The notes: a model not told the origin generated them from the sequence alone. Positions 4,459-32,415 are shown, numbered from the stretch's first letter. The stretch is DNA of 64,000 nt from an uncultured bacterium (GCA_965603365.1 CBFDCR010000008.1:24531-88530), one strand, 5' to 3'. Translations and numbers: made by a program.

Positions 4459-4504
4459 TTTCAGTTTACCGATTTTCCACCCCCTTTTTTGGTCCTTTAA
4501 TATT

Positions 4505-6573: not shown

Positions 6574-6591
6574 CTTTGCAGGGAGGAAATA

Positions 6592-6864: not shown

Positions 6865-7069
6865 GCGTAATAACGCAACCAAATTTATTTACGGGTGGGT
6901 GGTAGGGATAAAAAAGGGGAGTCAGCCGGAAATTTTGCAGTTCCTTGAGTTCAACCGTCTCTTTTTTTCTCCCTTGCGCCAATGTCGGCATCAGGTCTCC
7001 ACCTGAATTGTTCAGGTTTCAATATGAAATGTTGAGGTTTCAAAAGGAGTGACGGTTTTGCCTGACCTT

Positions 7070-10664: not shown

Positions 10665-11473
10665 CGTATTCCCGGTAAATACAGGGGGCGGTCTATATTC
10701 CCCTTTATCTCATTTATTTCCTGTTCGGCCAATCCATCCCGGATCGTCTGCAGGTCGAATTTTGAGTGGATGGCCAACAATGAATATGAGAGGGTATCCT
10801 TAGCGTAGCTGGTCTTCACAAAATTCAAGGTTTTAATAATCTCCTCCACCATGTCACTGTCCTGATCACTCCTGAATTTTCTCAGGTAATAGGGGACGAA
10901 TTTGTCTTGAAATACGATGGTGGAAAGATCTTGATCGATTTCGATCAAAAAATCCGGCGATTTCTTCCGACCGAACCTTCGGGAAGTTTTCCAGAGATGG
11001 TTCATGATCTCTATGGTGGAATTACCGATATAAATCAGTTCCAGTTGATTCTCCCGGAAAATATGTTCGATTTTCTGGAGCAAGTCTTTTTTCAATAACA
11101 CCGAAAGGACTCGATTCCGGCTTAATTTGAAATAGTGGTGCAGGTAGAGATCGATATTTTCGGGGAAGACTTTCTCAACCCGCCATTCGATTAGCTCCCG
11201 CTGTCGCTCTTCCCACAGGGGAATTTTCTCGAATTCAAAAATATTAAATACAAAATTTTCCGAATTCAAAACAATCCCCACCTGGGAATCTGCCAATTCT
11301 TTTCTGATCTCGCCCAACTCCGAAACAGCCATCTCAAAAATTGACACATCGGTCAGTGTCCCGGTTTTTTGGGCCGTGCCTTTGCCGACTTTAAAGATGT
11401 CGAGATAGTTGTCGCCGGCATAGATCACCTGAGAAGGATTCTTAAAATGAATAAATAATTCCGTCATAGCCAT
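10661..11473 (-). CDS. PilM-like protein
   Basis: Soluble protein between the ATPase and PilN-like genes; weak resemblance (ELIEWRVEKVFP). Confidence 0.55.
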   Translation of the reverse strand: MAMTELFIHFKNPSQVIYAGDNYLDIFKVGKGTAQKTGTLTDVSIFEMAVSELGEIRKELADSQVGIVLNSENFVFNIFEFEKIPLWEERQRELIEWRVEKVFPENIDLYLHHYFKLSRNRVLSVLLKKDLLQKIEHIFRENQLELIYIGNSTIEIMNHLWKTSRRFGRKKSPDFLIEIDQDLSTIVFQDKFVPYYLRKFRSDQDSDMVEEIIKTLNFVKTSYAKDTLSYSLLAIHSKFDLQTIRDGLAEQEINEIKGNIDRPLYLPGIR

Positions 11474-16369: not shown

Positions 16370-17297
16370 TCTTGATCCTGGGGTCCAACAGAAAATAGGA
16401 CACATCCACCAGAAAGTTCACCATTAAATACACCGCACTCATAAACACGATGAGTCCCTGCACCATGGGATAGTCCCGGCGGTACACCGATTGGATGAGC
16501 AGGACCCCTATCCCCTGCCAGGAAAATATGGTCTCGGTGACGATGGCGCCGGTGAGCAGGAAGCCGAACTGCATGCCCATGGTGGTGATGATGGGGATCA
16601 AGGCATTTTTCAGGATGTGCCTGAAAAATATCTTCATCTCCGACAGTCCCTTAGCCCGGGCCAGCAGTACATAGGGTTTCTGGAGTTCCGTGCCCACCGA
16701 GGTACGGATGATGCGGGTCAAAGAAGCGGTCATGGACGTCCCCAGGGTCAGGGCCGGCAGCACCAGGTAACGCATCCCCTCCGAGCCCGAGACCGGCAGC
16801 CAGCCAAATGTGATGGAGAACAGCAAAATCAACAGCGGCCCTAAGAAAAAGTTAGGGATAGCCTGCCCGGCGGCGCTGAAAAAAATCACCGCCGACTCAA
16901 ATCCCGACTTCTTCTTAAAGGCCGCCGCCGTGCCCAGGGGGAAGGAGATCAGGAGAGCAATCAGCATGGCCGCCAGCGCCAGGTACACCGTATTGGGCAG
17001 GTAGTCGACAATGTTGGCGATCACCTGCCGGCGATTGTACAGCGATGTACCCAGGCTCAAATTCAGGAGATTCCGGTTGAAGTCCAGGTACTGCGCCAAC
17101 AGCGGTTTGTCCAGGTTCAATTCCCGCCGGATCCGATCCATATCTTCGACATTCTCGCCCTCCCCCAGGATGCCGATAACCGGATCCCCGGGGATCACAT
17201 GGATCAAAAAGAAGGCCGCACACCCCACCGCCCACAGCAAAAACACCAGCATCAACAGTCGTTTTACAATATAGCCTCTCAAGGGCATCCTCATCAT
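16350..17297 (-). CDS. Peptide/nickel ABC transporter permease (DppB/OppB-like)
   Basis: IPGDP, LDKPLLAQY, ARAKGLSE, ETIFSWQGIG and RDYPMVQG motifs. Confidence 0.92.
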   Translation of the reverse strand: MMRMPLRGYIVKRLLMLVFLLWAVGCAAFFLIHVIPGDPVIGILGEGENVEDMDRIRRELNLDKPLLAQYLDFNRNLLNLSLGTSLYNRRQVIANIVDYLPNTVYLALAAMLIALLISFPLGTAAAFKKKSGFESAVIFFSAAGQAIPNFFLGPLLILLFSITFGWLPVSGSEGMRYLVLPALTLGTSMTASLTRIIRTSVGTELQKPYVLLARAKGLSEMKIFFRHILKNALIPIITTMGMQFGFLLTGAIVTETIFSWQGIGVLLIQSVYRRDYPMVQGLIVFMSAVYLMVNFLVDVSYFLLDPRIKNEVSAA

Positions 17298-17318
17298 TGA
17301 CGATTACGCAGCAGTGCG

Positions 17319-18458
17319 TTACGCAAAAGTGCGTAATCTTAAATATAAAGGAAAAAAGGGATCACAGAACCCGAATCGTTCCTCCAGCTTCTCGATAATA
17401 CCGGCCTCCATCAGGCTGTTAAGCGCCCGCTGGGTGCTGGAAACCGAAGACAGACCGAATTTTTCGGCATACTCCCTGGAAAAGATACTCTCCTTCTGGT
17501 GGACCAGGGCATGCAGCACCTTGCGTTGATAAATCGTGAGCTGGTCAAATAGAGTGTGGTAATAATCGCTCTGGTTATCCAGTATCAGGGATACCGCTTT
17601 TTCCACGGTGGTCTCATCCACCTCCAGGCCCTCTTCCCTGGCCAACTGCCAGACCTGTGAGGCCAGGAATTGATTGTAATAAGGGATATTGTCGGTATAA
17701 TCCAATATCTTTTCTAAAATCCCCTCGGCAAGCGCCAATCCCCCCCTGCTGAACTCTTCCCCGATATGGTCGATCATCTCTTCTGGGGATATTTTATCTA
17801 ATTTTACGATCTTACCGATGTTATAAAAGGCCCGTTTTTTATCGGCAAACAGGTTTAGCATCAAATGGGTCTTGCTGCCCATAAACACATAGCCGATATC
17901 GTCGTGAAATTGAAGCACCGAGCGGAACTGTTTTTCCATTGTCTCCCCATTCAGCCGATTGATCTCCTGGAATTCATCCAGCACGATGACCCATTTTTCA
18001 TCTTTTCCTTTGACTTTTTTCGGCAGATCCAGTGCATCCAGCAGGGAATACTCCCTGGGCACATTGGCACTGTAGGAAAATGAGAGCACCGGCTTGCCGC
18101 TGTCGTCGAAAGTAATGCTGGGCATGATCCCCCGCACAGATGCCTTTATCCTCTTCACCGCCTTCTGGAGCGAAGGCCCCATGGCCTCCATGATCCGGGA
18201 CGCATACAACTGGATAAAATTTTCCTGCGAAAAGACCTGGTAAAAATCCAGGTATGCGGTTTTAATCCCCTGCCCTTTCAGCTCTGCCAATACTTTCAAA
18301 ATCAAGGAAGTCTTCCCGTACCTCCGGGGCGAATACAAAATAATATTGTTGCCCCCCAACAGGTCGGATTTAATCCGGGCAATCTCCCTCTGCCGGTTAA
18401 TAAAATAGCGACCACTCACCACGGTTCCATACTTAAACGGATTCATCCCCCTAATCAT
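17319..18458 (-). CDS. Archaeal-type (ATPase_2/AAA) ATP-binding protein with C-terminal winged helix
   Basis: NPFKYG, SPRRYGKT (Walker A), IVLDEFQ (Walker B), FCDPFF terminus. Start codon uncertain (18458 or 18446). Confidence 0.8.
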   Translation of the reverse strand: MIRGMNPFKYGTVVSGRYFINRQREIARIKSDLLGGNNIILYSPRRYGKTSLILKVLAELKGQGIKTAYLDFYQVFSQENFIQLYASRIMEAMGPSLQKAVKRIKASVRGIMPSITFDDSGKPVLSFSYSANVPREYSLLDALDLPKKVKGKDEKWVIVLDEFQEINRLNGETMEKQFRSVLQFHDDIGYVFMGSKTHLMLNLFADKKRAFYNIGKIVKLDKISPEEMIDHIGEEFSRGGLALAEGILEKILDYTDNIPYYNQFLASQVWQLAREEGLEVDETTVEKAVSLILDNQSDYYHTLFDQLTIYQRKVLHALVHQKESIFSREYAEKFGLSSVSSTQRALNSLMEAGIIEKLEERFGFCDPFFPLYLRLRTFA

Positions 18459-18671
18459 ATAATGATCCCCCCCTCCTGTCAACCTCCCCTCAAGCTAAAG
18501 TGAAAGCTATGGCTTGAAGATTTTTAGATCCAATTCTTTGAAAGATTAAAGATATGGATTAAAATCTTTGCCTGACCCCAATCCGTCTCAACATTTAACG
18601 TTCCCCATCCCTGCCCTTTTATTTCTTCCCCAATGCGGTGCCGACACTCTTAAACATAGCATCAACATCCT

Positions 18672-18796
18672 TTGACGCGGTGTTAACGCTCTTTGACACG
18701 ATGTAAACGCCCTTTGACGCGGTGTAAACGCTCTTTGACGCGGTGCCAACGCATTTTGACGCGATGTAAACGCCCTTTGACAGGATGCAAAGCCCT
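18672..18796. repeat. Degenerate tandem array, 6 x 21 bp (consensus TTGACGCGGTGTAAACGCCCT)
   Basis: Units start at 18672, 18693, 18714, 18735, 18756 and 18777 (last unit 20 bp); no spacers. Confidence 0.9.
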
Positions 18797-18808
18797 AAAT
18801 TTTACCTG

Positions 18809-18991
18809 TTACCTTGTTAATCCATTAAAGTATTGTTTCAATTCCGTCTTTTCAAAGTATATGACAAACAGTTGATCCCCCGCCTTGAACCGGTGACTCC
18901 TGGAGTACTGCCCATTGGTAGAACTGCCGGGAGTGACATAACTCCCGACGAGTGAAAAATAAAGATTATCTTTAAAAATATCATATGCCAA
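18809..18991 (-). CDS. Small orphan ORF between the two 21-bp arrays
   Basis: 60-aa ORF; its TTG start overlaps the 3' end of the heptad ORF; no family recognised. Confidence 0.3.
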   Translation of the reverse strand: MAYDIFKDNLYFSLVGSYVTPGSSTNGQYSRSHRFKAGDQLFVIYFEKTELKQYFNGLTR

Positions 18992-19236
18992 CGATTTCTC
19001 CGCTTATGGTAATGGTTTTGCCCCTCATGTGGATGATTTCGCCGCCCATGTGAACGGCATCGCCCTCCCCGTGGATCGTTTCGCCCGCTATGTGAACGAT
19101 TTTTCCCTTCATGTGGATGATTTCTCCCCCTATGTGAATGGTTTTGCCGCCCGTGTGAATGATTTCTCCGGCTATGTGAATGATTTTGCCCTTCATGGCA
19201 ATGATTTCGCCGCTTATGGGAATCGTTTCTCCGGTT
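18985..19236. repeat. Degenerate tandem array, 12 x 21 bp (consensus ATGTGAATGATTTCGCCGCCT); the minus frame encodes His-containing heptads
   Basis: Units every 21 bp from 18985 to 19216. The minus frame reads G-[EK]-[IT]-[IV]-H-x-x (ORF 18981-19196). Confidence 0.9.
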
Positions 19237-19271
19237 ACACTCTAAATAGGAGAGGAGCCTTATTTAGTATC

Positions 19272-20999
19272 CTAAAACAAAGCAATGAGCGTCCCAATCA
19301 AAGCAATTATCGTCCCCACGATCCATTTCCAATTCTTTTTCAGGCCATAAGCGAAATTAACTTTTACATATATTTCTCTATCCATCACAGGGTAGCTCTT
19401 TACTTTTTCGCCATATTTATCAAGATATACTATCACTGAAATTGAAGGACAAATAACTCTTTTCCCGGATCTTAACGGTGTAATTTCCCACTCCCATTGA
19501 GTATACCCACTGGAGGCAATCAACTGTTTTTTTTCACTGAGAGGCTCAATTTTAAAGTCATCCACAGATAACTCCGCTTTCATTGTAGTACTTATTTTTA
19601 GTTTTTCTATCTTTGGTATTCCCCTTCCTTTCAACCCCTTAGTTAGATCCTCCTTCAAATCTTTTGAAATACGAACTTCCACTCTTTCAGTTTCCCCCAC
19701 CCGCATCTCTTCTGGAGGATTAAATAGGATCTGGCCTATTTCTAACTGATTCAGTTCATCATCAATGATCTTGTGTGCGTCAATTTTCATTCCCCCTGAT
19801 TTTACTTTCAGATATTCCCAAATTCCCGCGTTGCTTGCAAGGGTATCAACATCGACATCCATTGAAGTATCACGGCTTCGATGCTCATCATTTTTGATCT
19901 CAGTATTGATTGCTATTTCCTCCCCAATTATCACTCCTCCTCCAACCTTTCCTATTTTCACTTTCATTTTACTTCCTTTTTTTTCAGAACTGTTAGATTC
20001 GTTTTCATCATCTCCATTTTTTCTTATCAGTTTTACTGAAACCTGTCCGTCTTTGCATTTGTTGAGGGCTCTGTCGAATTCATGGCGGTCGTCAAAGTAG
20101 GTTCGCAGATATATGGTACCTTCGGCTTTTTGGACATCAAGTTGAAAGGCCGAATATCCAATATAATAAGATCTGCCTTTGTATAGACAGCCGCTCTGGA
20201 TCAATAGGGTTTGGTTGCCGAAGTTCTGGACCAGTTCCAGGTTGGGGTCGTGGAGGTGGCCACAGAAGATGAGATCGAATTCCCGGTAGAGCATTTTTTT
20301 GGCATCGCCGAGATCATATTCGCTGAGCCAGTCTAAGGCGTGATGAAACAGGGCAATCTTAATATTACAATCCTTGATGTCCTGGAAGGCATCATAAATC
20401 TGGCGTTCGCCGATTAAAAGTTTGCCGTTATCATAGCCGTCGGCTTTGCCGGTGGCCCGCCAACTGGAGTTCAGGCAGGCGATGCCGATTTTGGCGGAGT
20501 TTTTTTGGAGTATATGGGTGGAAAATAATTTGTTGGAAGTGATCGTGTGCGTTGAGTGAAATTGACTTTTAAAGGCGTTGAAGTGGTCCAATCTTTCGAT
20601 ATGGGGAAAATCTTTTTCGATCTCTTTGTCTAAGAAAGCATTCAGGGTCTCACGGTCGATCAGTGCCGTTCTTAGACCCTCTTCGGTGATGGAGTCGATT
20701 GCTTTCATCTGCATGTCGTGGTTGCCGGGGACGATGAAAAATTCGTTCCTGGTCAGCTTCGTTTTTTGCAATAGGGGATCGATAAAGACTTCGTAAGCTC
20801 TTTTAAAATCGTCTTCTTTGTCTCCTGCTTTGACCAGATCGCCGGTGAAGAGGATGAAGTCGATGTCCGGGAAGTGGTCCAGGTCTTTCCACAGGGCATT
20901 TAAGACGATTTCGGTGTCTTTGGGTTTTGAACTGTCGTAGTGCAAATCGGATAAGTGAAGCATATTTATAACGTCTAAATTGTTAGCTTCCTTTGCCAT
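19272..20999 (-). CDS. Calcineurin-like metallophosphoesterase (copy A) fused to a beta-rich domain and C-terminal TM helix
   Basis: LHLSDLH, TGDLV, PGNHD, LFHH, CGHLH motifs; C-terminal WKWIVGTIIALIGTLIALF; GAGGTG SD. Confidence 0.88.
   Translation of the reverse strand: MAKEANNLDVINMLHLSDLHYDSSKPKDTEIVLNALWKDLDHFPDIDFILFTGDLVKAGDKEDDFKRAYEVFIDPLLQKTKLTRNEFFIVPGNHDMQMKAIDSITEEGLRTALIDRETLNAFLDKEIEKDFPHIERLDHFNAFKSQFHSTHTITSNKLFSTHILQKNSAKIGIACLNSSWRATGKADGYDNGKLLIGERQIYDAFQDIKDCNIKIALFHHALDWLSEYDLGDAKKMLYREFDLIFCGHLHDPNLELVQNFGNQTLLIQSGCLYKGRSYYIGYSAFQLDVQKAEGTIYLRTYFDDRHEFDRALNKCKDGQVSVKLIRKNGDDENESNSSEKKGSKMKVKIGKVGGGVIIGEEIAINTEIKNDEHRSRDTSMDVDVDTLASNAGIWEYLKVKSGGMKIDAHKIIDDELNQLEIGQILFNPPEEMRVGETERVEVRISKDLKEDLTKGLKGRGIPKIEKLKISTTMKAELSVDDFKIEPLSEKKQLIASSGYTQWEWEITPLRSGKRVICPSISVIVYLDKYGEKVKSYPVMDREIYVKVNFAYGLKKNWKWIVGTIIALIGTLIALF
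19851..20815. repeat. Direct repeat copy 1 (965 bp), matching 28008-28972
   Basis: Line-by-line comparison at offset 8157 showed one mismatch (19899 C vs 28056 T, synonymous Glu). About 150 bp further upstream stays alignable but has many substitutions. Confidence 0.93.
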
Positions 21000-21315
21000 A
21001 CTTCACCTCTTACTTTAATAGTATATCTTTTCATTTTATTACATTTCGCCCTGTCTCACGTTAGAAGCAAGACAAAATTATACTACATAAATATTTTGAA
21101 AAAAAGGGTTGATTTAATACACAGTAATCATGCCAGTTAGCTTATCTTTATGCGAAGCATCTAAGTGTCAGGCAAGAAGGCTGCTCCTTGAAAAACCAGA
21201 ACTTCGCCCCAGATTCAACTTTTAAACATCTGCTTTAGCGATCCTTTTTTGAAGGATGCGCTGAGTCCCAGACTGAGTATGCCATCACTCCATTACTTAA
21301 AAAATAGAAGGACAT

Positions 21316-23778
21316 TTAATTTATGTCGAGTATTTGTCTGGTCACATCGTCTACGAAGGCTTTGAGTTTTGCTTCTTTTTCTTCTCTTTTCTTTTTTTCC
21401 TCTTTTTCTTTCTCTTCGTCTTTTTCCTTCTTTTCCGGTACTTCCCATTGATTTATGGCGTCCCATAGTGTGCTTTGAAGATCTTCATCGCCAGTTCGAT
21501 AAAGTTCGACAATCAATTTCTTTAATTCATTATTCACCTTATTCTTTGAAAGATTGTCAATTACCCATTTTTCCAGATTGTTGAACAGAATTTTTTTCAA
21601 CTCTTTACGATCGCTTAGCTGGAACTTTGAAAAGCACTTTTCATATAAACCCTTTAAAAATTGAACCATTTTTTCGTTTGCTTTATCGCCCATAGTTAAT
21701 GAATTCAATAAGACATTGGAACTAAGGGAATTTTGATCTTCGTCAGATAGGTGAATTATCTTTCTACTCTCTAGCACCTGGAGGATTCCATCGGAACCCA
21801 GAAAGAACAGTACCACGATAATTTTAGTGTCTCTATTGCCCTCTTTGATCCAGTTGCTCAGTTCCGAAATAACATCGATAGGATTGATCATGATACACAA
21901 AGCCACTATCGAATATCGAACATTGGACAATAAATAATTGGTTTCTTTATACAACATATCCAGATCTTGTAGGACATCCTCTTCACTTGCCCCCCTTCTA
22001 TAAAGGATATCCAGAATATTCTCGGTCTTAAGCATTCTTTTAATTATTTCTTCCTGGATCTTTCTTAATTCTTTCATGGCAATTTTCAGATCGCGAAGCC
22101 CTATTTGTTTATAGGCAGAGATGGCTGTCCATTGAACCTTTATATTGTCACTGAGCGCCATGTTTTTCAAAAAGCCCATGCAAAAATTTTTATAATTTTC
22201 GTCTTCACTAGATAAAATTCCTTCAAATAGGTAGCCTACGTTTGCCCTAAAAAAAGATTCTTCCATATGTGCCCAGCCTCTGATAAAATGGAGGGCAATA
22301 GACTCAAGGTCGAGTTCACCTATCCTACCGATACTGTATGCGGCCAATCTCCGTAGATCCGGTTGATACGGATTCTCAACATATTCTTGTAGATAAGGAA
22401 TAAGAGTGATAAGTATTCTCCGATTGTTCTTGAAGAGGGTATTCAACAAGATTTTTTGATACATAGGATCACAGAATTCGATTACATCCGCAGAAATGAG
22501 TGTATCTCTTGTTACCTGGGCTTTACATTTCGCGAGCAGATCGCTTTCGGAAAGGGTGAAGGAGAATTCTTTATTGGGACTATAGGGAGTTATTGCTCTC
22601 AACAATTTTTTGGTGATTGCTTTATGGATTTGCTCGAAATCAAAATAAGGGACTCCGTTTATAAGAGCCAAAAATAAGGCAAATGTCCATGCCTCAAACT
22701 CTTTATTATTTTCCCCCAACTCTTTCAGGAACCAGTGCTCAACCCGTTTTTCAATACTGTTTACTTCCACGATAGCTTCATCTACCGTTTTCCCCCCTGC
22801 CAATATTTTTTCCAGATAGTTCTCAATAAACAGTGAAATCTTTGACATCCGATTAAATTTTTTAAGTATTTCAGGTAGCCTCTTTTTTAAGATGTCGGGG
22901 GCATTATTTGGATCTATTTGCCGTGAAGAGCAGAAATGTTCGAGTTTCAACTTAAAACCTTCTTTAATCAGATTATCATCGATTAGAGTCACTTCTGCCT
23001 TTATATCAAGACCGGAGACCTGGAATTCATCAAATGTATCATAATCGGCAGTAAACAAGATATATGCGTCCAGTTCCTTGAGCTTCTCTGAAAAAAATTT
23101 TGTCTGCTCCCTGGTATAAGAGGCAAAAAAATCTTGAAGCTTCAGATTGTTTCCTGAAAAGACATCCTTGAATATCAAAATTTTATTAGCCAAAACTTTA
23201 GGGTCATTGATTAAATCAAAAAGGTCAATAATTAATTCTTTAGCAACGGGCTTAACCAGTCGTACCTCATAATCTTTTTTATTTTCTTTCATGATCCGAG
23301 TTGAGAGGTACTTCGCCATAAAACATTTACCCGATTCCGGTTCTCCCACCAGGAGCAAAATCCTATTTAAGATAAGGGAAGCAAACAATTCATCGATTTT
23401 GTCAGGAGGATAGACAAAAGTCTGATAAATCTCTTCAAGAGAGTCCCCCGATATCCGAATCGTATTCGAGATCGAGAATTTTTTTATGCAAAAATTTACA
23501 CCATCTACTCCCCCTATTGCAGTTATATTATTAATATTATTTTTTGTTTCATAATTGATCTGTTGCGCTATAGTTGTATCTCTTCCTACTTGTCCGACGC
23601 CTACATCAAAGCCTGATTGACTCGATTGTTTTTCATCTCCGGCTGAACTAACCGTATCGGTCTTCTCTGTTTCTTTCGCCTCAGACGATTGTCGCGGCGG
23701 TTCAACTCTTTCTTCCTGGACATCCGGGTCACAACTTTCTGGATTTTCGGTGCCTTGTTTATCTTGCTCTTTTGACAT
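21316..23778 (-). CDS. P-loop NTPase (STAND/NLR-like) with disordered N-terminus and C-terminal ARM/HEAT-like repeats
   Basis: Walker A LLVGEPESGKC and Walker B-like ILIFKD. Helical repeats such as RRLAAYSIGRIGE, RANVGYLF and VQWTAISAYKQIG. Charged tail. Confidence 0.7.
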   Translation of the reverse strand: MSKEQDKQGTENPESCDPDVQEERVEPPRQSSEAKETEKTDTVSSAGDEKQSSQSGFDVGVGQVGRDTTIAQQINYETKNNINNITAIGGVDGVNFCIKKFSISNTIRISGDSLEEIYQTFVYPPDKIDELFASLILNRILLLVGEPESGKCFMAKYLSTRIMKENKKDYEVRLVKPVAKELIIDLFDLINDPKVLANKILIFKDVFSGNNLKLQDFFASYTREQTKFFSEKLKELDAYILFTADYDTFDEFQVSGLDIKAEVTLIDDNLIKEGFKLKLEHFCSSRQIDPNNAPDILKKRLPEILKKFNRMSKISLFIENYLEKILAGGKTVDEAIVEVNSIEKRVEHWFLKELGENNKEFEAWTFALFLALINGVPYFDFEQIHKAITKKLLRAITPYSPNKEFSFTLSESDLLAKCKAQVTRDTLISADVIEFCDPMYQKILLNTLFKNNRRILITLIPYLQEYVENPYQPDLRRLAAYSIGRIGELDLESIALHFIRGWAHMEESFFRANVGYLFEGILSSEDENYKNFCMGFLKNMALSDNIKVQWTAISAYKQIGLRDLKIAMKELRKIQEEIIKRMLKTENILDILYRRGASEEDVLQDLDMLYKETNYLLSNVRYSIVALCIMINPIDVISELSNWIKEGNRDTKIIVVLFFLGSDGILQVLESRKIIHLSDEDQNSLSSNVLLNSLTMGDKANEKMVQFLKGLYEKCFSKFQLSDRKELKKILFNNLEKWVIDNLSKNKVNNELKKLIVELYRTGDEDLQSTLWDAINQWEVPEKKEKDEEKEKEEKKKREEKEAKLKAFVDDVTRQILDIN

Positions 23779-23796
23779 CTTAGATCCCTCCCTATT

Positions 23797-25005
23797 TTAC
23801 TGTGCAGCTTCGAATTCGGTTTTGACATCTTCTAGTATCGTTCTAAATCTTTTAATTCGTTCTATGCGATCTAGAGTAAAAATTTTTCGATGTTCCACTG
23901 TGTACCTTTCCAGTCGCTTAAGTTGCTGCTCAATCACTTCGAAATCTGCTTTTTCCTCACGATATGTTTCACCCATAATCTGAGTTACAATGGCGAGCAT
24001 TTCCCTTTTATCTTCATTGTTGCATCCAGAGTTTCTAATATCGTTCATAATTCCCATAAGAATCTTTCTAAGATCCCCCGAAGATCCTGATTCGCCGATA
24101 TCCAAATTCTTTTGCATTTCATCAACTATTGGAATACTTCGAGGATTGCCCAGGTTTTGGGGGGTGGAGAAATGCTCCCGCACCACTCCCATAAAAGCAT
24201 CCATAGATTTTGTAAATTTTTCAGGATTATCAACATTTTTAGCCAGTTGTTCTACGGCAACGGGGAATTGTTCGTATGTTTTATTTATCGCTTCTGAGGC
24301 ACTCTCCATTCTCTTAAGCATCAACTCATGAGCTTTGGCTTCTAACTCTTCTTCTCTTTTTGCCTTTGCCTTCTCTTTATTTAAGGCATCTAGCGCCTTT
24401 TCGACATCATGCTTATCGCCCGCCTTGTCCAACTCCAGGTCGCCTTCTGAAAGGGTATGGTGCATGACAATCTTTTCAATACTTATTCCATAGTTATCTG
24501 CAATGTGTCGAATACTTTTTAAAGATTTCTCAGACAAAATGATATCTTCGATTTCGTCGAAACGGGATTTCACATCATCGATTGTAATCTTGCTCTTCTT
24601 GATATTGACCCTGAACTGACTCTCCATTTCATTCCAGATGAGTCGCAGGGGATCATCCCGAAACCGGACAGCTAAGGGTCCTGGATTGGATACCTGGAAG
24701 TAGACTCTACAACTAAGGGTAAAATTCTTGTGCTGGGTCGGTAACATAAAGGTGGAACTTCTATCAAAGCTGAGGTTGGGATTGGCATTTACCGCATAGG
24801 CAACATAATTGCGGTTTAGAGAGAGAAACCCGGTTTTTATGGGTTTGCCATCCTCACCTTTTGACGGCTTACCGTCCTCATTTAGAATTTTATAAAGGGT
24901 CTTTGAGTCCTTTTTTTCCTTAAAAATAACAACTCTATAACCCTGCCTCGGTACAGGGGCGACATTGGGTTTTAAAACCCCAAAAGATTCGGTTAAATTT
25001 TCCAT
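23797..25005 (-). CDS. SPFH/band-7-like protein with coiled coil, no TM
   Basis: FTLSCRVYFQVSNP, DDPLRLIW and NYGISIEKIV match the SPFH core; followed by an Ala/Glu/Lys coiled coil. Confidence 0.6.
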   Translation of the reverse strand: MENLTESFGVLKPNVAPVPRQGYRVVIFKEKKDSKTLYKILNEDGKPSKGEDGKPIKTGFLSLNRNYVAYAVNANPNLSFDRSSTFMLPTQHKNFTLSCRVYFQVSNPGPLAVRFRDDPLRLIWNEMESQFRVNIKKSKITIDDVKSRFDEIEDIILSEKSLKSIRHIADNYGISIEKIVMHHTLSEGDLELDKAGDKHDVEKALDALNKEKAKAKREEELEAKAHELMLKRMESASEAINKTYEQFPVAVEQLAKNVDNPEKFTKSMDAFMGVVREHFSTPQNLGNPRSIPIVDEMQKNLDIGESGSSGDLRKILMGIMNDIRNSGCNNEDKREMLAIVTQIMGETYREEKADFEVIEQQLKRLERYTVEHRKIFTLDRIERIKRFRTILEDVKTEFEAAQ

Positions 25006-25006
25006 T

Positions 25007-25990
25007 TTACTTCTCCTTATTTTTGTTCTTTCTTGCTATATCTTCAATTATTTTTTTAATTTGACTGGCGATGTCTTTTAAATGATTTAATTTAACCTTG
25101 AGATCTATTTTAAGTAATTGTTTCGCCGCGTGGTCCCAATAGTTAACATATTTTTTGTCTATTTCGGGAAAATGACCTTTACCTCTCGACTTTGTATTTT
25201 GCGAGGATTGAGTGGTTTCCCTTGACACAAAGAAAAACAAATTTCTATCGCTGATCTGGAGTTCAAATTCCTCAAGCAACCTTTCGGCCAGGGTCAGGTA
25301 ATAACTATCGATCAAGCTTTTGAGCTTGTCTATCATGGAAAAGTCTGTATTTTTGTCCCTCTCCTCAGCATGGAATTTTACAGCGTGTATTTGTTCCAGA
25401 ACATTCGCCAGTTTCTCTACCTTTTTTTTCAATTGCTCAAACTTTACGGTATCCATCTCTCGATGGAATAATTTTTCTATTTCCTGGCGGCAGATGAATA
25501 AGTTCAACTCTGCCTTATGGGTTTGTCTTTTTTCGAGATATCCCCGACTGCTTTCCTGCAAATCGGCGATTACTTTTTGGGTTGTTGTATCAACAAATAG
25601 AGGTGCCCCGGTAAGCTCGTTCAGTTCATCAATCAATTCTTGTACTGCGTCATACCGCTTGATCATCGGTAAAGTCATTTCCAAATCTTTGATGATGATT
25701 TCCGCTTCCCTGATTTTTTTTACTGCTTTTTTGAATTCTACCCTTTCGACGTTTCGCAGTATCTCACCAAGGATATCGTCAAAACGGATCAATTCCTGGA
25801 GGCGAAAACGGCGTAAACACTCCCTCTCGCCGCTAAATTGAGCAGATCGGGTGGACAGGTTATCGATTTCTTGAGTCAACAGGTATGATACCCGGCTATC
25901 GTTATACCAGCCGTTTTGCCAGCGCCACAAAGTTTTTTCAAGGATAAAATCGGTTTTACTTCTAGAATGTCTGTGCTGCCGATTCATCAT
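25007..25990 (-). CDS. Hypothetical alpha-helical protein
   Basis: 327-aa ORF overlapping the MotB-like gene by 29 bp; ends 1 bp before the SPFH gene start. Confidence 0.75.
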   Translation of the reverse strand: MMNRQHRHSRSKTDFILEKTLWRWQNGWYNDSRVSYLLTQEIDNLSTRSAQFSGERECLRRFRLQELIRFDDILGEILRNVERVEFKKAVKKIREAEIIIKDLEMTLPMIKRYDAVQELIDELNELTGAPLFVDTTTQKVIADLQESSRGYLEKRQTHKAELNLFICRQEIEKLFHREMDTVKFEQLKKKVEKLANVLEQIHAVKFHAEERDKNTDFSMIDKLKSLIDSYYLTLAERLLEEFELQISDRNLFFFVSRETTQSSQNTKSRGKGHFPEIDKKYVNYWDHAAKQLLKIDLKVKLNHLKDIASQIKKIIEDIARKNKNKEK

Positions 25991-26678
25991 GGTTCTCTTT
26001 CATCTCTTTTTCGAGATCACTGAAATATACCACCCGGATCTCGATTCGTCGATTCAATGCCCTACCTTCTGTTGTGTCATTCGATGCTACAGGCTTTTGG
26101 TCGGCATAGCCATTGGCCGAGAAAAGACTACTTTCCAGATGAACAAATTCTTCTTCAATAAACCAATGGAAAAACTTCACCACATTGATGGCCCTTTGGG
26201 CGGACAGTTCCCAATTGGAGGCAAACTCCTCTCTCAGGCGACCGGAAATCTGCACATTGTCGGTATGACCTTCCACCTGGATTTGTTTGAATTTTGCCTT
26301 TTCTTCAGCCCAATCAAAAATGAGTATCAGGCTGGCAAGCAGATGTTTGCCGCGTTTTAAGAGTTTTGCATCTCCCGATTTAAACAGTATTTCGCTGCTG
26401 AAGGTAATCTGCTGCAAATTGCCGTGTGTTACGATTTTGATTGTTCCCTCTTTTATTTCAGCCGCGAATGCCCGGGTAAGTTCTTCAACGAATTCTTCCT
26501 GGCAGGATCTCACCCGCAGCATCTCAAACGCTTCGGTATTTAAAATGAGCCTCAAGAAGGCAATGAGAAAAAATATCATCAAAATTGAAACAAACACATC
26601 GATAAATCCAGGCCAGAAATTTACGCCTCTGTCTGGAGAAGACGTATTGGTCTTATCTTTTATAAATTCCATCAGCAT
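25962..26678 (-). CDS. MotB/ZorB-like protein (TM with conserved Asp plus OmpA-like peptidoglycan-binding domain)
   Basis: FWPGFIDVFVSILMIFF TM; IQVEGHTD, NWELSAQRA and NRRIEI OmpA motifs. Confidence 0.88.
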   Translation of the reverse strand: MLMEFIKDKTNTSSPDRGVNFWPGFIDVFVSILMIFFLIAFLRLILNTEAFEMLRVRSCQEEFVEELTRAFAAEIKEGTIKIVTHGNLQQITFSSEILFKSGDAKLLKRGKHLLASLILIFDWAEEKAKFKQIQVEGHTDNVQISGRLREEFASNWELSAQRAINVVKFFHWFIEEEFVHLESSLFSANGYADQKPVASNDTTEGRALNRRIEIRVVYFSDLEKEMKENHDESAAQTF

Positions 26679-27943
26679 CCTACCAATAAGATAATCAAAA
26701 AAATAATCGCCAATGCTGCGGTGGCGGCGATGTATTTATTATTAAATAAGGAACTCAAGGAGGGTACAATTACTACCAATCCCTTTTCCTTGATTCTCAT
26801 GATCCGGTTGACCTCTTTAGAAAAGGTCTCCTGCTGCTTTCTCATCACGTCTATAAGGGAATTGATTTCCTCTTTCGCTACTTTACCCTGTCCTTTCATA
26901 GCTTCTACCATCTTCGGCCACTGATCCACGATGCCTATAATCGATTCATTGGTCTTTTTGAGCAGCGTGAGCACCCCTTCAAAATTTCGCGATGCTTCTC
27001 TCTTGGTGATATCCCGTACTTCATCCACGATGGTCTTAAAAGAGCCTTGAATGGTACTTAAATTTTCGATAGTATCCTTGTTCTGGGTTATAATGAACTC
27101 TAAGTTATCGAATGAATCTTGGAGATGTATAGCAATATTCTCCAGGGGATGCTCGCTCTGGACAGGCGGAACTGTTACCGGGATTAACTTTTCAACGGTG
27201 AAGTTCTCCAGTTTATGCAAGAAAGCGGTTTGGTTCCGCTGAATACGAAAGTTCAGATATATACATATTATGGTGGTTAATATTCCCACGATACTGGTGG
27301 AAAAGGCGGTTTTTATTCCCTGAAAAACGGTTTCCATGTTGGCGATTGAAGACTTTAAACCGGAAATAGAAAATGTGAGAGCATTGGGGTTGGGCAGCAG
27401 CATACTGATTTTCGTAACCATAAAGGCCAGGCCGATAAAGGTGCCAAATAGACCCAATATCATGGCCAAATCCCTGGAGAATCCCGGAAGAGTAACCCCC
27501 AGCCTCGATGCTTCAGAAGTCAGGGCATCTTGTTGTAGAAAGTCGGCACTAATTTTGACCCGGTATTTTCGCAATCTCTCAATGGTGTCCAGCCTTTTAT
27601 AGATAATACTCTTTCGCGTCACTCCTTCCTGGAGGTCTCTAATATTCATCAACAGGTCAGGGATCTCCTCTTTTCTTCCATCCTCCTTCGCTTCTTCGGT
27701 ATTGACGGATTCTAATGGTGCTCTCAGACGGGAAAGTTTTTCATCGACTTTACGCTCTACCTTTTTTAGTGTACGTTTCTCACGCTTTCTATACCGCTTG
27801 ATCGTGTGCCGACTGACCAATAAGGTGACAAATAACAGAAGAAAAATCACCGAGTTAATGGCAATGCAAAACTCGTTGGGGAACAGAAATTGCCGTAAAT
27901 CATTTAAAATGGGCAGAATGAAAGTTATTATCTCGTTTTCCAT
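26672..27943 (-). CDS. MotA/TolQ/ExbB (ZorA-like) channel protein with helical tail and extra C-terminal hydrophobic helix
   Basis: TM1, then ILGLFGTFIGL and GIKTAFSTSIVG motifs. Start at ATG 27943 after GGAGAGG, 1 bp after the MPE stop. Confidence 0.85.
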   Translation of the reverse strand: MENEIITFILPILNDLRQFLFPNEFCIAINSVIFLLLFVTLLVSRHTIKRYRKREKRTLKKVERKVDEKLSRLRAPLESVNTEEAKEDGRKEEIPDLLMNIRDLQEGVTRKSIIYKRLDTIERLRKYRVKISADFLQQDALTSEASRLGVTLPGFSRDLAMILGLFGTFIGLAFMVTKISMLLPNPNALTFSISGLKSSIANMETVFQGIKTAFSTSIVGILTTIICIYLNFRIQRNQTAFLHKLENFTVEKLIPVTVPPVQSEHPLENIAIHLQDSFDNLEFIITQNKDTIENLSTIQGSFKTIVDEVRDITKREASRNFEGVLTLLKKTNESIIGIVDQWPKMVEAMKGQGKVAKEEINSLIDVMRKQQETFSKEVNRIMRIKEKGLVVIVPSLSSLFNNKYIAATAALAIIFLIILLVGC

Positions 27944-27944
27944 T

Positions 27945-29156
27945 TTACCTCTCCAATTTTTTTTTGATATATCCCCCAACCTCTACTTCTTCACCAACAG
28001 TGCCGATATCGACATCCATTGAAGTATCACGGCTTCGATGCTCATCATTTTTGATTTCAGTATTGATTGCTATTTCCTCCCCAATTATCACTCCTCCTCC
28101 AACCTTTCCTATTTTCACTTTCATTTTACTTCCTTTTTTTTCAGAACTGTTAGATTCGTTTTCATCATCTCCATTTTTTCTTATCAGTTTTACTGAAACC
28201 TGTCCGTCTTTGCATTTGTTGAGGGCTCTGTCGAATTCATGGCGGTCGTCAAAGTAGGTTCGCAGATATATGGTACCTTCGGCTTTTTGGACATCAAGTT
28301 GAAAGGCCGAATATCCAATATAATAAGATCTGCCTTTGTATAGACAGCCGCTCTGGATCAATAGGGTTTGGTTGCCGAAGTTCTGGACCAGTTCCAGGTT
28401 GGGGTCGTGGAGGTGGCCACAGAAGATGAGATCGAATTCCCGGTAGAGCATTTTTTTGGCATCGCCGAGATCATATTCGCTGAGCCAGTCTAAGGCGTGA
28501 TGAAACAGGGCAATCTTAATATTACAATCCTTGATGTCCTGGAAGGCATCATAAATCTGGCGTTCGCCGATTAAAAGTTTGCCGTTATCATAGCCGTCGG
28601 CTTTGCCGGTGGCCCGCCAACTGGAGTTCAGGCAGGCGATGCCGATTTTGGCGGAGTTTTTTTGGAGTATATGGGTGGAAAATAATTTGTTGGAAGTGAT
28701 CGTGTGCGTTGAGTGAAATTGACTTTTAAAGGCGTTGAAGTGGTCCAATCTTTCGATATGGGGAAAATCTTTTTCGATCTCTTTGTCTAAGAAAGCATTC
28801 AGGGTCTCACGGTCGATCAGTGCCGTTCTTAGACCCTCTTCGGTGATGGAGTCGATTGCTTTCATCTGCATGTCGTGGTTGCCGGGGACGATGAAAAATT
28901 CGTTCCTGGTCAGCTTCGTTTTTTGCAATAGGGGATCGATAAAGACTTCGTAAGCTCTTTTAAAATCGTCTTTTTTGTCTCCAATTTTTACCAGGTCGCC
29001 GGTGAAGAGGATGAGGTCGATGTTTGGGAAGTGGTCCAGGTCTTTCCACAGGGCATCTAAGACGATTTGGGTGTCTTTGGGTTTTGAACTGTCGTAGTGG
29101 AGATCGGAGAGGTGGAGAATGTTTATCTCCGATGTTTTGGTCTTATTATCTGTCAT
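27945..29156 (-). CDS. Calcineurin-like metallophosphoesterase (copy B) with C-terminal two-repeat Gly/Val/Ile motif
   Basis: Same five MPE motifs as copy A; AGGAGG SD; last 59 aa contain two 18-aa pseudo-repeats. Confidence 0.88.
   Translation of the reverse strand: MTDNKTKTSEINILHLSDLHYDSSKPKDTQIVLDALWKDLDHFPNIDLILFTGDLVKIGDKKDDFKRAYEVFIDPLLQKTKLTRNEFFIVPGNHDMQMKAIDSITEEGLRTALIDRETLNAFLDKEIEKDFPHIERLDHFNAFKSQFHSTHTITSNKLFSTHILQKNSAKIGIACLNSSWRATGKADGYDNGKLLIGERQIYDAFQDIKDCNIKIALFHHALDWLSEYDLGDAKKMLYREFDLIFCGHLHDPNLELVQNFGNQTLLIQSGCLYKGRSYYIGYSAFQLDVQKAEGTIYLRTYFDDRHEFDRALNKCKDGQVSVKLIRKNGDDENESNSSEKKGSKMKVKIGKVGGGVIIGEEIAINTEIKNDEHRSRDTSMDVDIGTVGEEVEVGGYIKKKLER
28008..28972. repeat. Direct repeat copy 2 (965 bp), matching 19851-20815
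   Basis: See copy 1. Confidence 0.93.
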
Positions 29157-29285: not shown

Positions 29286-31451
29286 TTATTTGTCTATTGT
29301 TTGTTGGATTTCATCGAGCAGGGGGGCTACTTTGTCTTCGGCTGAGACTTCCCGGGCTTTGGTCTGGATGAGGGTGTACATTTTGGTGACGGTGGCTTTG
29401 GGGGTTTCGGGGGCGAAGTTGCGGAGGATCTTGGCGAGGCGAACGACTTCGGCGGGGCTCATGACTGTTTTTTCGTTTACGATTTCGCTGGTTTTCCGGA
29501 AGTTGGGCTGCTTTTTGAAGAAGCGCTGGCTCTCCCGTTTGGCGGCGATCAGGTCGTAGTGGGGTTTGAGGACCGGGTTGTTGACGGCGGCGGCGATGAT
29601 CTCGTTGCCCTTTTCCAGGTGCTCGCCGCCGATGGCTAAGGCCAGGATGGTGTCGGGGTTGGAGAAGATCCTGAGGGCGGCCCTGGCGTGGTCGTCGTCT
29701 TTGGGCGGGGTGACCATCAGGCCGGCGCTGCCGGCAATCCTGATTTGGACCCCTTCGAAGTCCCAGCGGAGCTCCAGCAGGACGCGGTAGTAGCCGGAGG
29801 TGGGAAACAGGGGGCCTTCGGTGCCCCACAGCAGGGTGACCGAATGGCTGAGGAAGTCGGCCGGCTGGAGTTCCTGGGGCATGACATCGCGGGTGTAGCG
29901 GATGATGGTGGCAAAATCCTGGGCAGAACCCAGGGGATCTATTACCCGGCCGGACACGTGACCGGTCTTCATGCTGAGGCTGCCGGGCACCAGTCTGGGT
30001 TTATCGGAGCGGTTGGTAAGGGTGAAATTGATGCGCACCGGTGCGCCGATGGGTACGATTTCGTGCAGCGGCGAGACGCGGAGTTCCAGGCCCTCGGCCT
30101 CCACCACCTCGTCCCGGACATTGACCGGCAGGCGGTCGTGGGGAGTGCCGAAGGAGACGCCGCCGGGACGGATGGCGATATCCGGCAGGTGACAGAGCAG
30201 CCGGATATCCCTGGGGGAGAAGGACCACTCGACATTGTGGGGAAACCGCTGCGGCGGTGCGGCGTTGTGGGCGATCTGGACCGTCTTCTGCATGATGTAG
30301 TTTTCGTAGGGGTTGTCGGGATGGTAGAGCATCATGGCGTGGCCGATCTCGTGGATGGCGGTGCGGATGTAGGGGATCTGGCATTCGCCAAAAGGTTTTT
30401 GTTTGCACTCGCCCCAGCACGCCTCATCGGGAAAGACCACCTGAGAGGCGATGGCTGCACCCTCACGGGGGATGTCGTTGACGCCGCTGATGGTGTTGTC
30501 GTACATGACGCCGAAGGCCTCGTCGTCCAATTTGCGCACCGCCAGGAGATGGTAGTGCCACTGCTTATCCAGGTCGACGGTCTCCCGGTATTTTAACATC
30601 TTCTGGTGCAGCTCGGCATTGGACCAACTGTAATCTTCTGGTTCTTCCACGTCGTCATTGCTGATATTGACGCTGACCTGCCAGCCGGCCCCATGAAAGA
30701 CCGCTTCCCAATGGCCCTGGTGTTTATCGTAAGGAGAGTTGGCCGCCGGGACCCGGTCGATCTCGATCACCGCCTGGCGCAGGTAGGGGGAGATGCGGAC
30801 CATCATCAGTTGTCCCAGCACGATACCGGAGCCGGTCTGGATGTCGCCGCGCCAGTAGTGGATGCCGTCGGGGCCGGTGGAAAATTTGACGGCGGCGCTC
30901 AGGGGATCGCCCCGACCCCAGGTACGGCGGGCATAATCGAACCGGTAGGGTTCCATCTCCAGTACGATACTCTCACCCCCCCCGGGTTCCTGGCACAGGC
31001 GGGTGACCCGCAGGTAGTAGGCGTACTGCTGGCGGGGAAATACGGGGATATCGTGGTGGCGGTCATCCTGGTCTGAGAAAGAGGGGCAAAAGGTGGGGGA
31101 CTGGCAAAAGTCCTTTTTGTAAAGGTCGCCGCTGGCCATCATGGCGGCTCCGCTGCGCTGGATGCGCAGGCTGCCTTCGTATTGAAACCGGGCAGGGGTA
31201 TGCAGCGAGGTGGGGATTAGGCGGATGTAGTAGCAGCCGCCGGGCAATACTTTCGGCTGCGAAGCCCTGGCGGAATCCTGGGTCGATTGATCCGGCGGCG
31301 GCATGTCCAGCGGCTCGGGCAGGGGCGGCAGTCCGCTGTCGCTGCCGCGGATCTTCCGTTCGCCGCTGGCCGTTAACACATCATGATAATTTTGATTGGC
31401 CGACTCTGTCGACTCACCGGTACAACCGTTTAAACACTGTTCGTCTTCCAT
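29286..31451 (-). CDS. Metzincin-like zinc metallopeptidase domain protein
   Basis: HEIGHAMMLYH (HExxHxxxxxH) and downstream NYIM Met-turn; no signal peptide; AGGAGG SD. Confidence 0.7.
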   Translation of the reverse strand: MEDEQCLNGCTGESTESANQNYHDVLTASGERKIRGSDSGLPPLPEPLDMPPPDQSTQDSARASQPKVLPGGCYYIRLIPTSLHTPARFQYEGSLRIQRSGAAMMASGDLYKKDFCQSPTFCPSFSDQDDRHHDIPVFPRQQYAYYLRVTRLCQEPGGGESIVLEMEPYRFDYARRTWGRGDPLSAAVKFSTGPDGIHYWRGDIQTGSGIVLGQLMMVRISPYLRQAVIEIDRVPAANSPYDKHQGHWEAVFHGAGWQVSVNISNDDVEEPEDYSWSNAELHQKMLKYRETVDLDKQWHYHLLAVRKLDDEAFGVMYDNTISGVNDIPREGAAIASQVVFPDEACWGECKQKPFGECQIPYIRTAIHEIGHAMMLYHPDNPYENYIMQKTVQIAHNAAPPQRFPHNVEWSFSPRDIRLLCHLPDIAIRPGGVSFGTPHDRLPVNVRDEVVEAEGLELRVSPLHEIVPIGAPVRINFTLTNRSDKPRLVPGSLSMKTGHVSGRVIDPLGSAQDFATIIRYTRDVMPQELQPADFLSHSVTLLWGTEGPLFPTSGYYRVLLELRWDFEGVQIRIAGSAGLMVTPPKDDDHARAALRIFSNPDTILALAIGGEHLEKGNEIIAAAVNNPVLKPHYDLIAAKRESQRFFKKQPNFRKTSEIVNEKTVMSPAEVVRLAKILRNFAPETPKATVTKMYTLIQTKAREVSAEDKVAPLLDEIQQTIDK

Positions 31452-31466
31452 TTTTAAAACCTCCTG

Positions 31467-31937
31467 TTATGTTTCCCCGGGTGATTGGGCCGGCCATTGG
31501 TCGTCATCGGCAACGGTAATATAGTCTTCGGTTCTGGGGCGGATGAAGGGGGACTGACTGGGGATGGTCATCTTGAGTTCCCAGGTGGGCGGGCCCGGCG
31601 GGATGCGCAGGAGTGTGCGCCCGCCCTGGTGGAGGAGGGTGGCTTCGCCGATCAGGGAGAAGCGGAAATCCAGGAAAGCGGGCAGATCCAGGACGCAGTA
31701 ATGCCGCAGGTGACCGGGACCGCTCACCACCGAGATGTGCAGGTAATCGTCTGCCTCCGCCGGTTTGATGCCGCGGGTGAGGGAACTGTTGGAACTGATA
31801 ATGTGGGCGCTGCGGTTGGCGTGATGGTAGACATTGATATCCCGCTTCTCCTTGACCAGTCGGTTCTGCACGGTGATATCGATGGCTGCCGCTGCCGATG
31901 GTTTGACCATGGTTTCATCTCCCGGGAATTCGTTCAT
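31467..31937 (-). CDS. Hypothetical protein, paralog of 31960-32415
   Basis: Shares LPxxxDFxFS and RTLLRIPPGPPTWELKM motifs with the neighbouring gene. Confidence 0.7.
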   Translation of the reverse strand: MNEFPGDETMVKPSAAAAIDITVQNRLVKEKRDINVYHHANRSAHIISSNSSLTRGIKPAEADDYLHISVVSGPGHLRHYCVLDLPAFLDFRFSLIGEATLLHQGGRTLLRIPPGPPTWELKMTIPSQSPFIRPRTEDYITVADDDQWPAQSPGET

Positions 31938-31959
31938 TTTTCATCCACGCTGTCCTCTT

Positions 31960-32415
31960 TCAGGTGTCCTGTTTCTGGATAACGATTTCCCTCCTGGCAG
32001 TCTGGACCCGGCGGGCAATCTCCTGGGTATCCTTGTCCAGATCGCGATTTTCCTTTACCAGCCAATCGGCAAATTGAACGGCATATTTACTGAATCTGTC
32101 GCCGCTCTCATCCTCGCCGGCGGATACCGGGTTGCCGGTGGGATCGGTAGGCGAAGGACCCGGCGAATTCATGACCTTTAATTTCCATTGGGGGGCGGAG
32201 GGCGGCACCTTGATAATGGTCCGGGTATCCCGAATCTCTATAGAAGAGATCGGTATCCCTTTACCGTTTTCCGTTACCGAAGAGAGCTGCAGATCGCATG
32301 ACAGCGGCAGGGTGACTTTGAACTTGCCGGTGTCGAGATCATCCAGGATGATTTCCAGGGGATCGCTCCCCACCCCTCTTTCGTCGATTACCACATTTCC
32401 CTTTTGTTCAGACAT
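31960..32415 (-). CDS. Hypothetical protein, paralog of 31467-31937
   Basis: LPLSCDLQLS and RTIIKVPPSAPQWKLKV; GGAGG SD. Confidence 0.7.
   Translation of the reverse strand: MSEQKGNVVIDERGVGSDPLEIILDDLDTGKFKVTLPLSCDLQLSSVTENGKGIPISSIEIRDTRTIIKVPPSAPQWKLKVMNSPGPSPTDPTGNPVSAGEDESGDRFSKYAVQFADWLVKENRDLDKDTQEIARRVQTARREIVIQKQDT

Follow-up and report, generated by a model that had tools for sequence, protein, structure and literature searches.

A conserved and apparently undescribed bacterial operon encoding a divergent Zorya-like motor, an SPFH protein, an NLR-like NTPase and an interchangeable effector

We analysed 64,000 nucleotides (nt) of DNA from an uncultured bacterium (GCA_965603365.1, CBFDCR010000008.1:24531-88530), called here the window and numbered from its first letter. 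At 21316-29156 the window carries an operon of six tightly packed open reading frames (ORFs), all on the minus strand, which encode a metallophosphoesterase (MPE), a motor pair resembling the ZorA and ZorB subunits of Zorya systems, two proteins that we call X and Y, and an NLR-like NTPase. An initial annotation, made from the sequence alone, had counted six co-oriented genes here and proposed a Zorya-like system distinct from those described. The gene junctions that it gave agree exactly with ours, being +1, -7, -29, +1 and +18 nt from effector to NTPase, and its view of the locus as distinct holds, as no PADLOC or NCBIfam system matches it. The operon is real, conserved and apparently undescribed; we found no description of the cassette in PADLOC 2.0, NCBIfam 2026, Pfam or the searchable literature. 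Its genes, the copies of a short motif carried by two of its proteins, and a second effector paralogue nearby are as follows (lengths in amino acids, aa).

27945-29156, minus strand: effector gene MPE-B, 403 aa (Pfam, PADLOC, NCBIfam, catalytic motifs)
26672-27943, minus strand: ZorA-like subunit of the MotA/ExbB family, 423 aa counted from an ATG (weak family matches, profile-profile comparison)
25962-26678, minus strand: ZorB-like MotB subunit, 238 aa (OmpA, PADLOC ZorB1, invariant Asp27)
25007-25990, minus strand: protein X, 327 aa, predicted soluble, all-helical core component (18 of 18 loci)
23797-25005, minus strand: protein Y, 402 aa, predicted cytoplasmic SPFH protein (AlphaFold2 and Foldseek; Band_7 in relatives)
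21316-23778, minus strand: NLR-like NTPase, 820 aa (Walker A and B, nSTAND3, HEAT)
28056-28127, minus strand: motif copy R1, MPE tail residues 344-367, KMKVKIGKVGGGVIIGEEIAINTE (NTPase-only profile; ungapped alignment)
27966-28025, minus strand: motif copy R2, MPE tail residues 378-397, TSMDVDIGTVGEEVEVGGYI (NTPase-only profile; ungapped alignment)
23536-23613, minus strand: motif copy N0, NTPase N-terminus residues 56-81, GFDVGVGQVGRDTTIAQQINYETKNN (kept in 17 NTPase homologues)
19272-20999, minus strand: second effector paralogue MPE-A, 575 aa (95% protein identity over 390 aa)

A five-gene core behind a changing effector gene

The contigs of the 12 ZorA-like relatives, together with a scan of 185,579 species genomes, yielded 19 loci for comparison. 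The order ZorA-like, ZorB-like, X, Y, NTPase was kept in all 19 as far as the contigs reach (phmmer, jackhmmer), and because it recurs in every one of them it lies far beyond chance; the initial annotation had made its proposal depend on the genes co-occurring elsewhere, and they do so in the same order. The loci come from at least four phyla, namely Bacteroidota, Acidobacteriota, Cyanobacteriota (Gastranaerophilales) and Gemmatimonadota, with Thermoanaerobaculia (Acidobacteriota), Gastranaerophilales, Longimicrobium, Saprospiraceae and metagenomes as sources. A collection of 5.8 billion proteins held only 12 relatives of the ZorA-like protein and a single close relative of Y, and the contig encoding that Y relative repeats the operon. 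Protein X is encoded in 18 of 18 loci and was found only alongside the motor.

The gene directly upstream of this core changes from locus to locus. Among 18 cases, the window included, it encodes CHAT (5), TIR_2 (5), Metallophos (2), DUF4062 (2), trypsin (1) or EAD11 (1) domains, and we therefore describe the cassette as five core genes plus a swappable effector, the MPE being only one among several interchangeable effectors.

In the window this effector, MPE-B, is a calcineurin-like metallophosphoesterase, as first annotated (Pfam Metallophos, 2e-16), with its catalytic motifs all intact (DLH18, GD53, GNHD92 and GHLH247). It matches PADLOC PDC-S60 at 2e-65 over the N-terminal 300 of 1027 model positions only, and NCBIfam DS8_antiphage at 2e-38 over the first 283 of 994 positions, with 131.6 bits against a cut-off of 790 bits. 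DS-8 is a validated single-protein anti-phage defence in which a metallophosphatase is joined to a NACHT NTPase, both shown to be essential by mutation (DefensePredictor, Science 2026; PMC13092281). The homology of the MPE domain to this validated effector domain lends support to the earlier suggestion that the phosphoesterase is the effector. Because of the same match, the effector looks as though it had been split off its NLR and re-linked to an NTPase through an amyloid-signalling-type motif, described below.

The paralogue MPE-A shares the catalytic domain and R1 with MPE-B, has lost R2, and has gained ~180 aa and a C-terminal membrane anchor (transmembrane segment at 557-575). From nt +184 to +1099, a stretch of 916 nt, the two genes are 100% identical in DNA, and they diverge at their 5' ends and in their 3' tails, a pattern that indicates recent gene conversion or assembly collapse. 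A terminator-like hairpin lies 3' of the NTPase gene (21212-21196) and a TAATTTTG box lies ~70 nt upstream of the MPE-A ATG; on these two features MPE-A is probably under its own promoter.

The motor, proteins X and Y, and the NTPase

The ZorB-like protein has one transmembrane helix containing Asp27, followed by an OmpA-type peptidoglycan-binding domain (Pfam OmpA, 2.5e-12), and matches PADLOC ZorB1 over its full length at 3.5e-28. W22, P23 and Asp27, together with the peptidoglycan-binding motifs GHTD...NWELS...NRRIE, are invariant in the 19 loci. The ZorA-like protein is more divergent: it reaches E 5e-3 against Pfam MotA_ExbB, under threshold, E 2e-5 against PADLOC ZorA (genuine ZorA, 1e-44), and 25 bits against NCBIfam ZorA_2, for which the cut-off is 100 bits. 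Its hydrophobic helices lie at 25-43, 159-177 (containing GLFGT), 210-228 (containing TAFSTS) and 405-423, and a helical stretch of ~170 residues separates the third from the fourth; the gene is counted from an ATG, and a TTG 36 nt further upstream is equally open. A profile of the ZorA-like family searched against PDB sequences returned coiled-coil noise and a weak MotA/ExbB match (E 0.11). The transmembrane Asp and OmpA domain of the MotB-like protein and the GLFGT and TAFSTS motifs of the MotA-like protein had been read from the sequence before, and all are present, although Pfam MotA_ExbB stays below threshold.

As a yardstick for Zorya we used a genuine type I pair from the same phylum (locus L088; ZorA1 1e-44, ZorB1 2e-64). 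The hidden Markov model (HMM) of the ZorA-like family scored this ZorA at 32-33 bits, versus 8.5 bits for the genome's best own ExbB/TolQ paralogue. With hhalign, the A subunit reached 95.7% (E 1e-8) against genuine ZorA, the alignment being restricted to transmembrane helices 2 and 3, versus 62% against the genome's own ExbB, and the B subunit reached 98.4% against genuine ZorB over its full length. Because both kinds of score favour ZorA and ZorB over ExbB and TolQ, the motor groups by profile comparison with Zorya and not with the Ton/Tol energisers, the grouping that would have told against the initial annotation. It is nevertheless divergent, a family of its own that falls short of every Zorya threshold. 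PADLOC and NCBIfam models found no ZorC-G partner among the six proteins or their neighbours, and no helicase or HNH match was found in the six proteins, in line with the first reading of the locus.

Searches of Pfam, PDB, PADLOC and NCBIfam found no relative of protein X. Protein Y likewise has no family match by sequence in Pfam, NCBIfam or PADLOC; a HMMER scan of 1.84 billion representatives gave 108 clusters related to it. An AlphaFold2 model of Y based on a 64-sequence alignment had a predicted local distance difference test score (pLDDT) of 90 (two-sequence model, 50), and its best PDB matches in Foldseek were stomatin, prohibitin, HflK/C, erlin, flotillin and FliL (E ~1e-7, probability 1.0). 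Pfam Band_7 is matched by 13 of the 64 family members. The SPFH fold, which the initial annotation had assigned to Y, is thus confirmed by the predicted structure and its Foldseek matches and not by Pfam on Y itself. In the model an SPFH domain is followed by a ~70-residue helix and then a C-terminal helical bundle, giving Y the alpha/beta domain and long coiled-coil helix of SPFH (Band 7) proteins; Y has no hydrophobic or transmembrane segment and so lacks their N-terminal membrane anchor. SPFH proteins assemble into rings or cages at membranes, and flagellar stators are encircled by rings of FliL. Members of the Y family also occur fused to CHAT or to TIR, and Y is therefore tied to effectors. 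As a separate observation, the Y N-terminus reads MxNLT (residues 1-5) and is near-invariant in the 64 family sequences (M1, N3 and T5); for an SPFH protein of the cytoplasm this is unusual.

The NTPase consists of a disordered N-terminus carrying one copy of the motif, a P-loop domain of nSTAND3 type with Walker A GEPESGK145 and Walker B ILIFKD, and HEAT repeats in its C-terminal half. Its own match to nSTAND3 (1e-4, 22.3 bits) is below the gathering threshold of 27.2, and 14 of 18 NTPase orthologues match the family. This is the layout of a STAND or NLR-like protein, with a P-loop NTPase followed by a repeat sensor and preceded by an N-terminal effector or adaptor region, and the earlier description of a STAND-like NTPase acting as NLR-like sensor agrees with the Walker motifs, the orthologue matches and the HEAT repeats.

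A motif common to effector tail and NTPase N-terminus

The motif spans ~18-25 residues and occurs twice in the MPE tail (R1 and R2, separated by a charged linker of 10 residues) and once in the NTPase N-terminus (N0). The segments that we compared were KMKVKIGKVGGGVIIGEEIAINTE for R1, SMDVDIGTVGEEVEVGGYI for R2 and GFDVGVGQVGRDTTIAQQI for the NTPase. In the nearest relative, L001, the two partners change together, with G replaced by N in both the upstream gene (LDIKVNTIKGDAVIAELI) and the NTPase (SDVNNISGNATIAQQI).

We built a motif profile from the N-termini of 17 NTPase homologues only and searched it against all 2,231 ORFs that the window and 21 loci contain. Among the 8 best-scoring proteins other than NTPases were five of the seven predefined effectors, matched at the R1/R2 positions (hypergeometric p 2.7e-12). 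The top non-NTPase segments were residues 213-236 of a Y-CHAT fusion in L086 and the C-terminus of the L001 upstream gene, and further top segments were R1 of MPE-B, of MPE-A and of the L002 MPE, the R2 copies, and the C-terminus of a ROCO GTPase. An ungapped alignment of 13 instances, with the L086 ROCO C-terminus added by eye, gave the pattern h-x-h-x-h-[GNDK]-x-h-x-G-x-[AV]-x-h-[GA]-x-x-I, and cognate effector/NTPase pairs outscored non-cognate ones (permutation p 8e-5). Simple local-alignment tests of the motif, in which low-complexity acidic stretches dominate, gave modest support (Fisher p 0.004), with the CHAT and TIR clades at chance. Judged by these sequence comparisons, motif coupling holds for the window's clade only.

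Within that clade the effector carries at its C-terminus the same motif that the NLR-like protein carries at its N-terminus, as in the BASS/HRAM pairs of amyloid signalling, whose published anatomy comprises two effector pseudo-repeats with a variable linker and one NLR copy, each of ~20-25 aa and rich in G/N/Q with alternating hydrophobics. One such motif, BASS11 of Bab/Agp, drives abortive-infection phage defence in E. coli. The motif could instead template no amyloid and serve to tether effectors to the complex as an ordinary short docking peptide, for example by contributing a beta-strand to the SPFH ring, the HEAT domain or X. The evidence for the motif consists of sequence similarity and position, and its position is flexible (inside the Y-CHAT fusion, at a CHAT N-terminus, at the ROCO GTPase C-terminus), as docking would allow. 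A ligand of one common receptor site would not, however, require the NTPase to carry a copy of its own; homotypic sharing between receptor and effector, combined with tandem effector pseudo-repeats, is a hallmark of templated folds, and the G/N/Q-rich alternating pattern fits beta-arch motifs. We regard docking as possible but doubtful.

The closest relatives of the NTPase (42-53% identity) adjoin a homologue of Y at loci without the ZorA-like protein, the ZorB-like protein or X (L086 and L094-L096). These motor-less loci (L086, 1-12844; L094, L095 and L096, ~7300-14000) encode CHAT and trypsin proteins, an LRR-Roc-COR (ROCO) GTPase and giant VWA-Tubulin_2 proteins, and there the motif is found at the CHAT protein N-terminus, inside the Y-CHAT fusion, at the ROCO C-terminus and in small proteins. 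Because its closest relatives pair with Y in this way, the NTPase together with Y is, on sequence relationships, the deeper core, with motor and X marking one branch. The SPFH-NTPase pair outside the motor context, the interchangeable effectors and the motif common to effector and NTPase all go beyond the initial annotation.

These loci also bring up a second alternative, in which the functional unit is Y, the NTPase and a motif-tagged effector, and the ZorAB-like pair with X is a separable accessory or a hitch-hiking independent system. The pairing of Y and NTPase with motif-bearing CHAT and trypsin effectors in L086 and L094-L096 favours it, as does a Y-type SPFH domain that occurs alone, fused to TIR, in L087. 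Yet every locus with a ZorA-like gene has the other four core genes, tightly packed and in the same order, across at least four phyla; the motor genes are flanked by the effector on their 5' side and by the NTPase on their 3' side, which places the motor inside the unit; and X was found only together with the motor. We consider mere juxtaposition unlikely.

Genomic setting, proposed mechanism and known systems

Two sets of neighbouring elements were considered as parts of the system and rejected. Downstream of MPE-A lie two arrays of 21-nt tandem repeats (window 18628-18812 and 18993-19237), the second of which recurs beside the cassette in L001 (6886-7108) and at no other locus; being confined to the window and its nearest relative, the arrays were ruled out. 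An ORF on the operon strand (18981-19196) would encode a hypothetical protein of 71 aa made of GxIIHxG heptads. On the other side, between a hybrid two-component sensor and the cassette, are three co-oriented genes (window 29286-32415; 151, 156 and 721 aa) that have no match in Pfam. The syntenic relative L002 has the same three-gene arrangement (5523-8767) and the other loci are without it, and these genes were ruled out because they are conserved only there.

The operon region has a GC content of 0.38-0.44 versus 0.50-0.60 in the flanks, and thus forms a low-GC island. At its edge is a gene for a second STAND-type ATPase (17319-18482; Pfam ATPase_2/nSTAND1), a neighbouring defence gene resembling PADLOC PDC-S27 (3e-9). 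Defence genes also adjoin the cassette elsewhere. In L003 it lies in a defence island (182-5477 and 17229-21251) beside a gene for a short prokaryotic Argonaute (pAgo) APAZ protein (Aga_REase-PNTD, 3e-52) and a CAP12-type TIR gene, and the island also has a RelA_SpoT/PDC-S33 and an Exo_endo_phos gene; in L004 a Gp49/HigB-like gene adjoins the cassette. Domain content and genomic context together point to a role in defence. SPFH proteins and MotAB/TolQR-type complexes do serve housekeeping roles in the envelope, the SPFH-like FliL normally partners flagellar stators, and fungal NLR/amyloid systems act in allorecognition, but an operon for envelope stress or membrane-microdomain maintenance, or a developmental or kin-recognition cell-death system built on a stator-like complex and an SPFH scaffold, is improbable given swappable CHAT, TIR, MPE and trypsin effectors with a STAND NTPase, which are typical of conflict systems, a patchy, rare and horizontally transferred distribution in a low-GC island, neighbouring defence genes, and an MPE clade that includes validated defence proteins.

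We suggest that the locus represents an undescribed anti-phage or conflict family, composed of a five-gene core, an interchangeable 5' effector and a portable motif linking effector to NTPase, in which sensing by the stator or the HEAT domain would activate the NTPase and, through it, the effector; taken as a whole, we hold this reading to be evenly balanced between right and wrong. In such a system the stator would report perturbation of the envelope during infection, as proposed for Zorya, the HEAT domain would bind a phage product, or both. The signal might pass from the cytoplasmic tail of the ZorA-like protein through X to an oligomeric SPFH platform at the membrane, and from there to the NTPase. 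If the NTPase follows STAND biology, NTP-dependent oligomerisation would gather its N-terminal motifs, and the anatomy of the motif suggests that these could then impose by templating a beta-solenoid or amyloid-like fold on the two-copy motif of the effector tail, recruiting and activating the phosphoesterase in the manner of Bab/Agp and BASS/HET-s-type signalling. The MPE would finally cleave nucleic acid or a nucleotide and so stop the phage or the cell.

Several points weigh against this reading. The system is very rare, being present in 1 of 401 genomes sampled in the phylum and in one copy in the window's genome. In the CHAT clade (L005-L009) and the TIR clade (L011-L017), clade-specific profiles did not find the motif among the effectors, and amyloid formation is suggested purely by analogy. 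The effector and NTPase genes are four genes apart, four conserved genes lying between them in all motor-containing loci, whereas the partners of published BASS pairs are adjacent. The motor may be an accessory input and not the sensor, because the closest NTPase relatives have Y but no motor or X. Zorya ZorA has a long, free C-terminal coiled-coil tail that is thought to be essential, whereas the tail of the ZorA-like protein is short, at ~170 aa, and closes with a hydrophobic helix. X is, by sequence, without a recognisable fold.

A bolder version of the proposal would make the cassette a new class of membrane-coupled NLR immunity. In it a cell-wall-anchored, ion-driven 5:2 stator would sense disturbance of the envelope by phage and relay it mechanically, via its tail and X, to a cytoplasmic SPFH ring, which would license the NTPase to nucleate a prion-like fold spreading to tagged MPE, CHAT, TIR, trypsin and even ROCO GTPase proteins. 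We think it unlikely that all of this holds; if it did, rotary mechanosensing and amyloid signal amplification would be joined in one bacterial system.

To our knowledge Zorya is the only defence built on a stator-like motor, and how its motor signals to cytoplasmic effectors is still unclear. The cassette joins a related motor to well-understood parts (a STAND NTPase, an SPFH scaffold and modular effectors), which could make this coupling genetically dissectable, and the motor-containing and motor-less SPFH-NTPase cores offer a natural comparison of what the motor contributes. If the proposed family is borne out, the reach of amyloid-type signalling, shown in bacteria so far only for Bab/Agp, would grow to include a membrane system of several components and an enzyme effector from the DS-8 family.

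Each of four known arrangements shares some of these features. Like DS-8, the cassette has a homologous metallophosphatase effector domain that would be under the control of a STAND-type NTPase; unlike DS-8, in which MPE and NACHT make up one polypeptide recognised at the NCBIfam cut-off, its MPE is a separate protein scoring below that cut-off, its NTPase comes from a different STAND family, and it has four further core proteins. With BASS/HRAM pairs it has in common a short motif at effector C-terminus and receptor N-terminus, a pair of pseudo-repeats joined by a variable linker in the effector against a single copy in the NLR-like protein, a motif that by comparison with published descriptions is ~20-25 aa long, beta-prone and G/N/Q-rich, and the existence, in DS-8, of an "all-in-one" fusion of the same effector to a STAND NTPase. 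It differs in that the effector is a metallophosphoesterase and the receptor is of nSTAND3/HEAT type, not NACHT or NB-ARC with TPR or WD40 repeats.

As in FliL-MotAB and the SPFH cages of HflK/C, stomatin and flotillin, a protein of SPFH fold accompanies a motor of the 5:2 stator type; here, however, that protein is predicted to be cytoplasmic, without a transmembrane segment, has a distinct C-terminal helical bundle and stands in no flagellar context. The closest comparison for the motor is with Zorya types I-III. As in Zorya, the A subunit is of the MotA/ExbB family, with a helical cytoplasmic extension after the third transmembrane helix, the B subunit is of MotB type and has both marks of ZorB, the essential Asp in its transmembrane helix and an OmpA-like domain for binding peptidoglycan, the motor genes stand side by side and are paired with soluble cytoplasmic partners, and both subunits are nearer by profile comparison to genuine ZorA and ZorB than to ExbB and TolQ. 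The A subunit departs from ZorA in going unrecognised at the thresholds of the Zorya models and in lacking the long coiled-coil tail. None of the three published Zorya types has SPFH or STAND partners: where they couple the motor to ZorC and ZorD, to ZorE, or to ZorF and ZorG, this cassette sets beside its motor protein X, an SPFH protein, a STAND NTPase and a variable effector.

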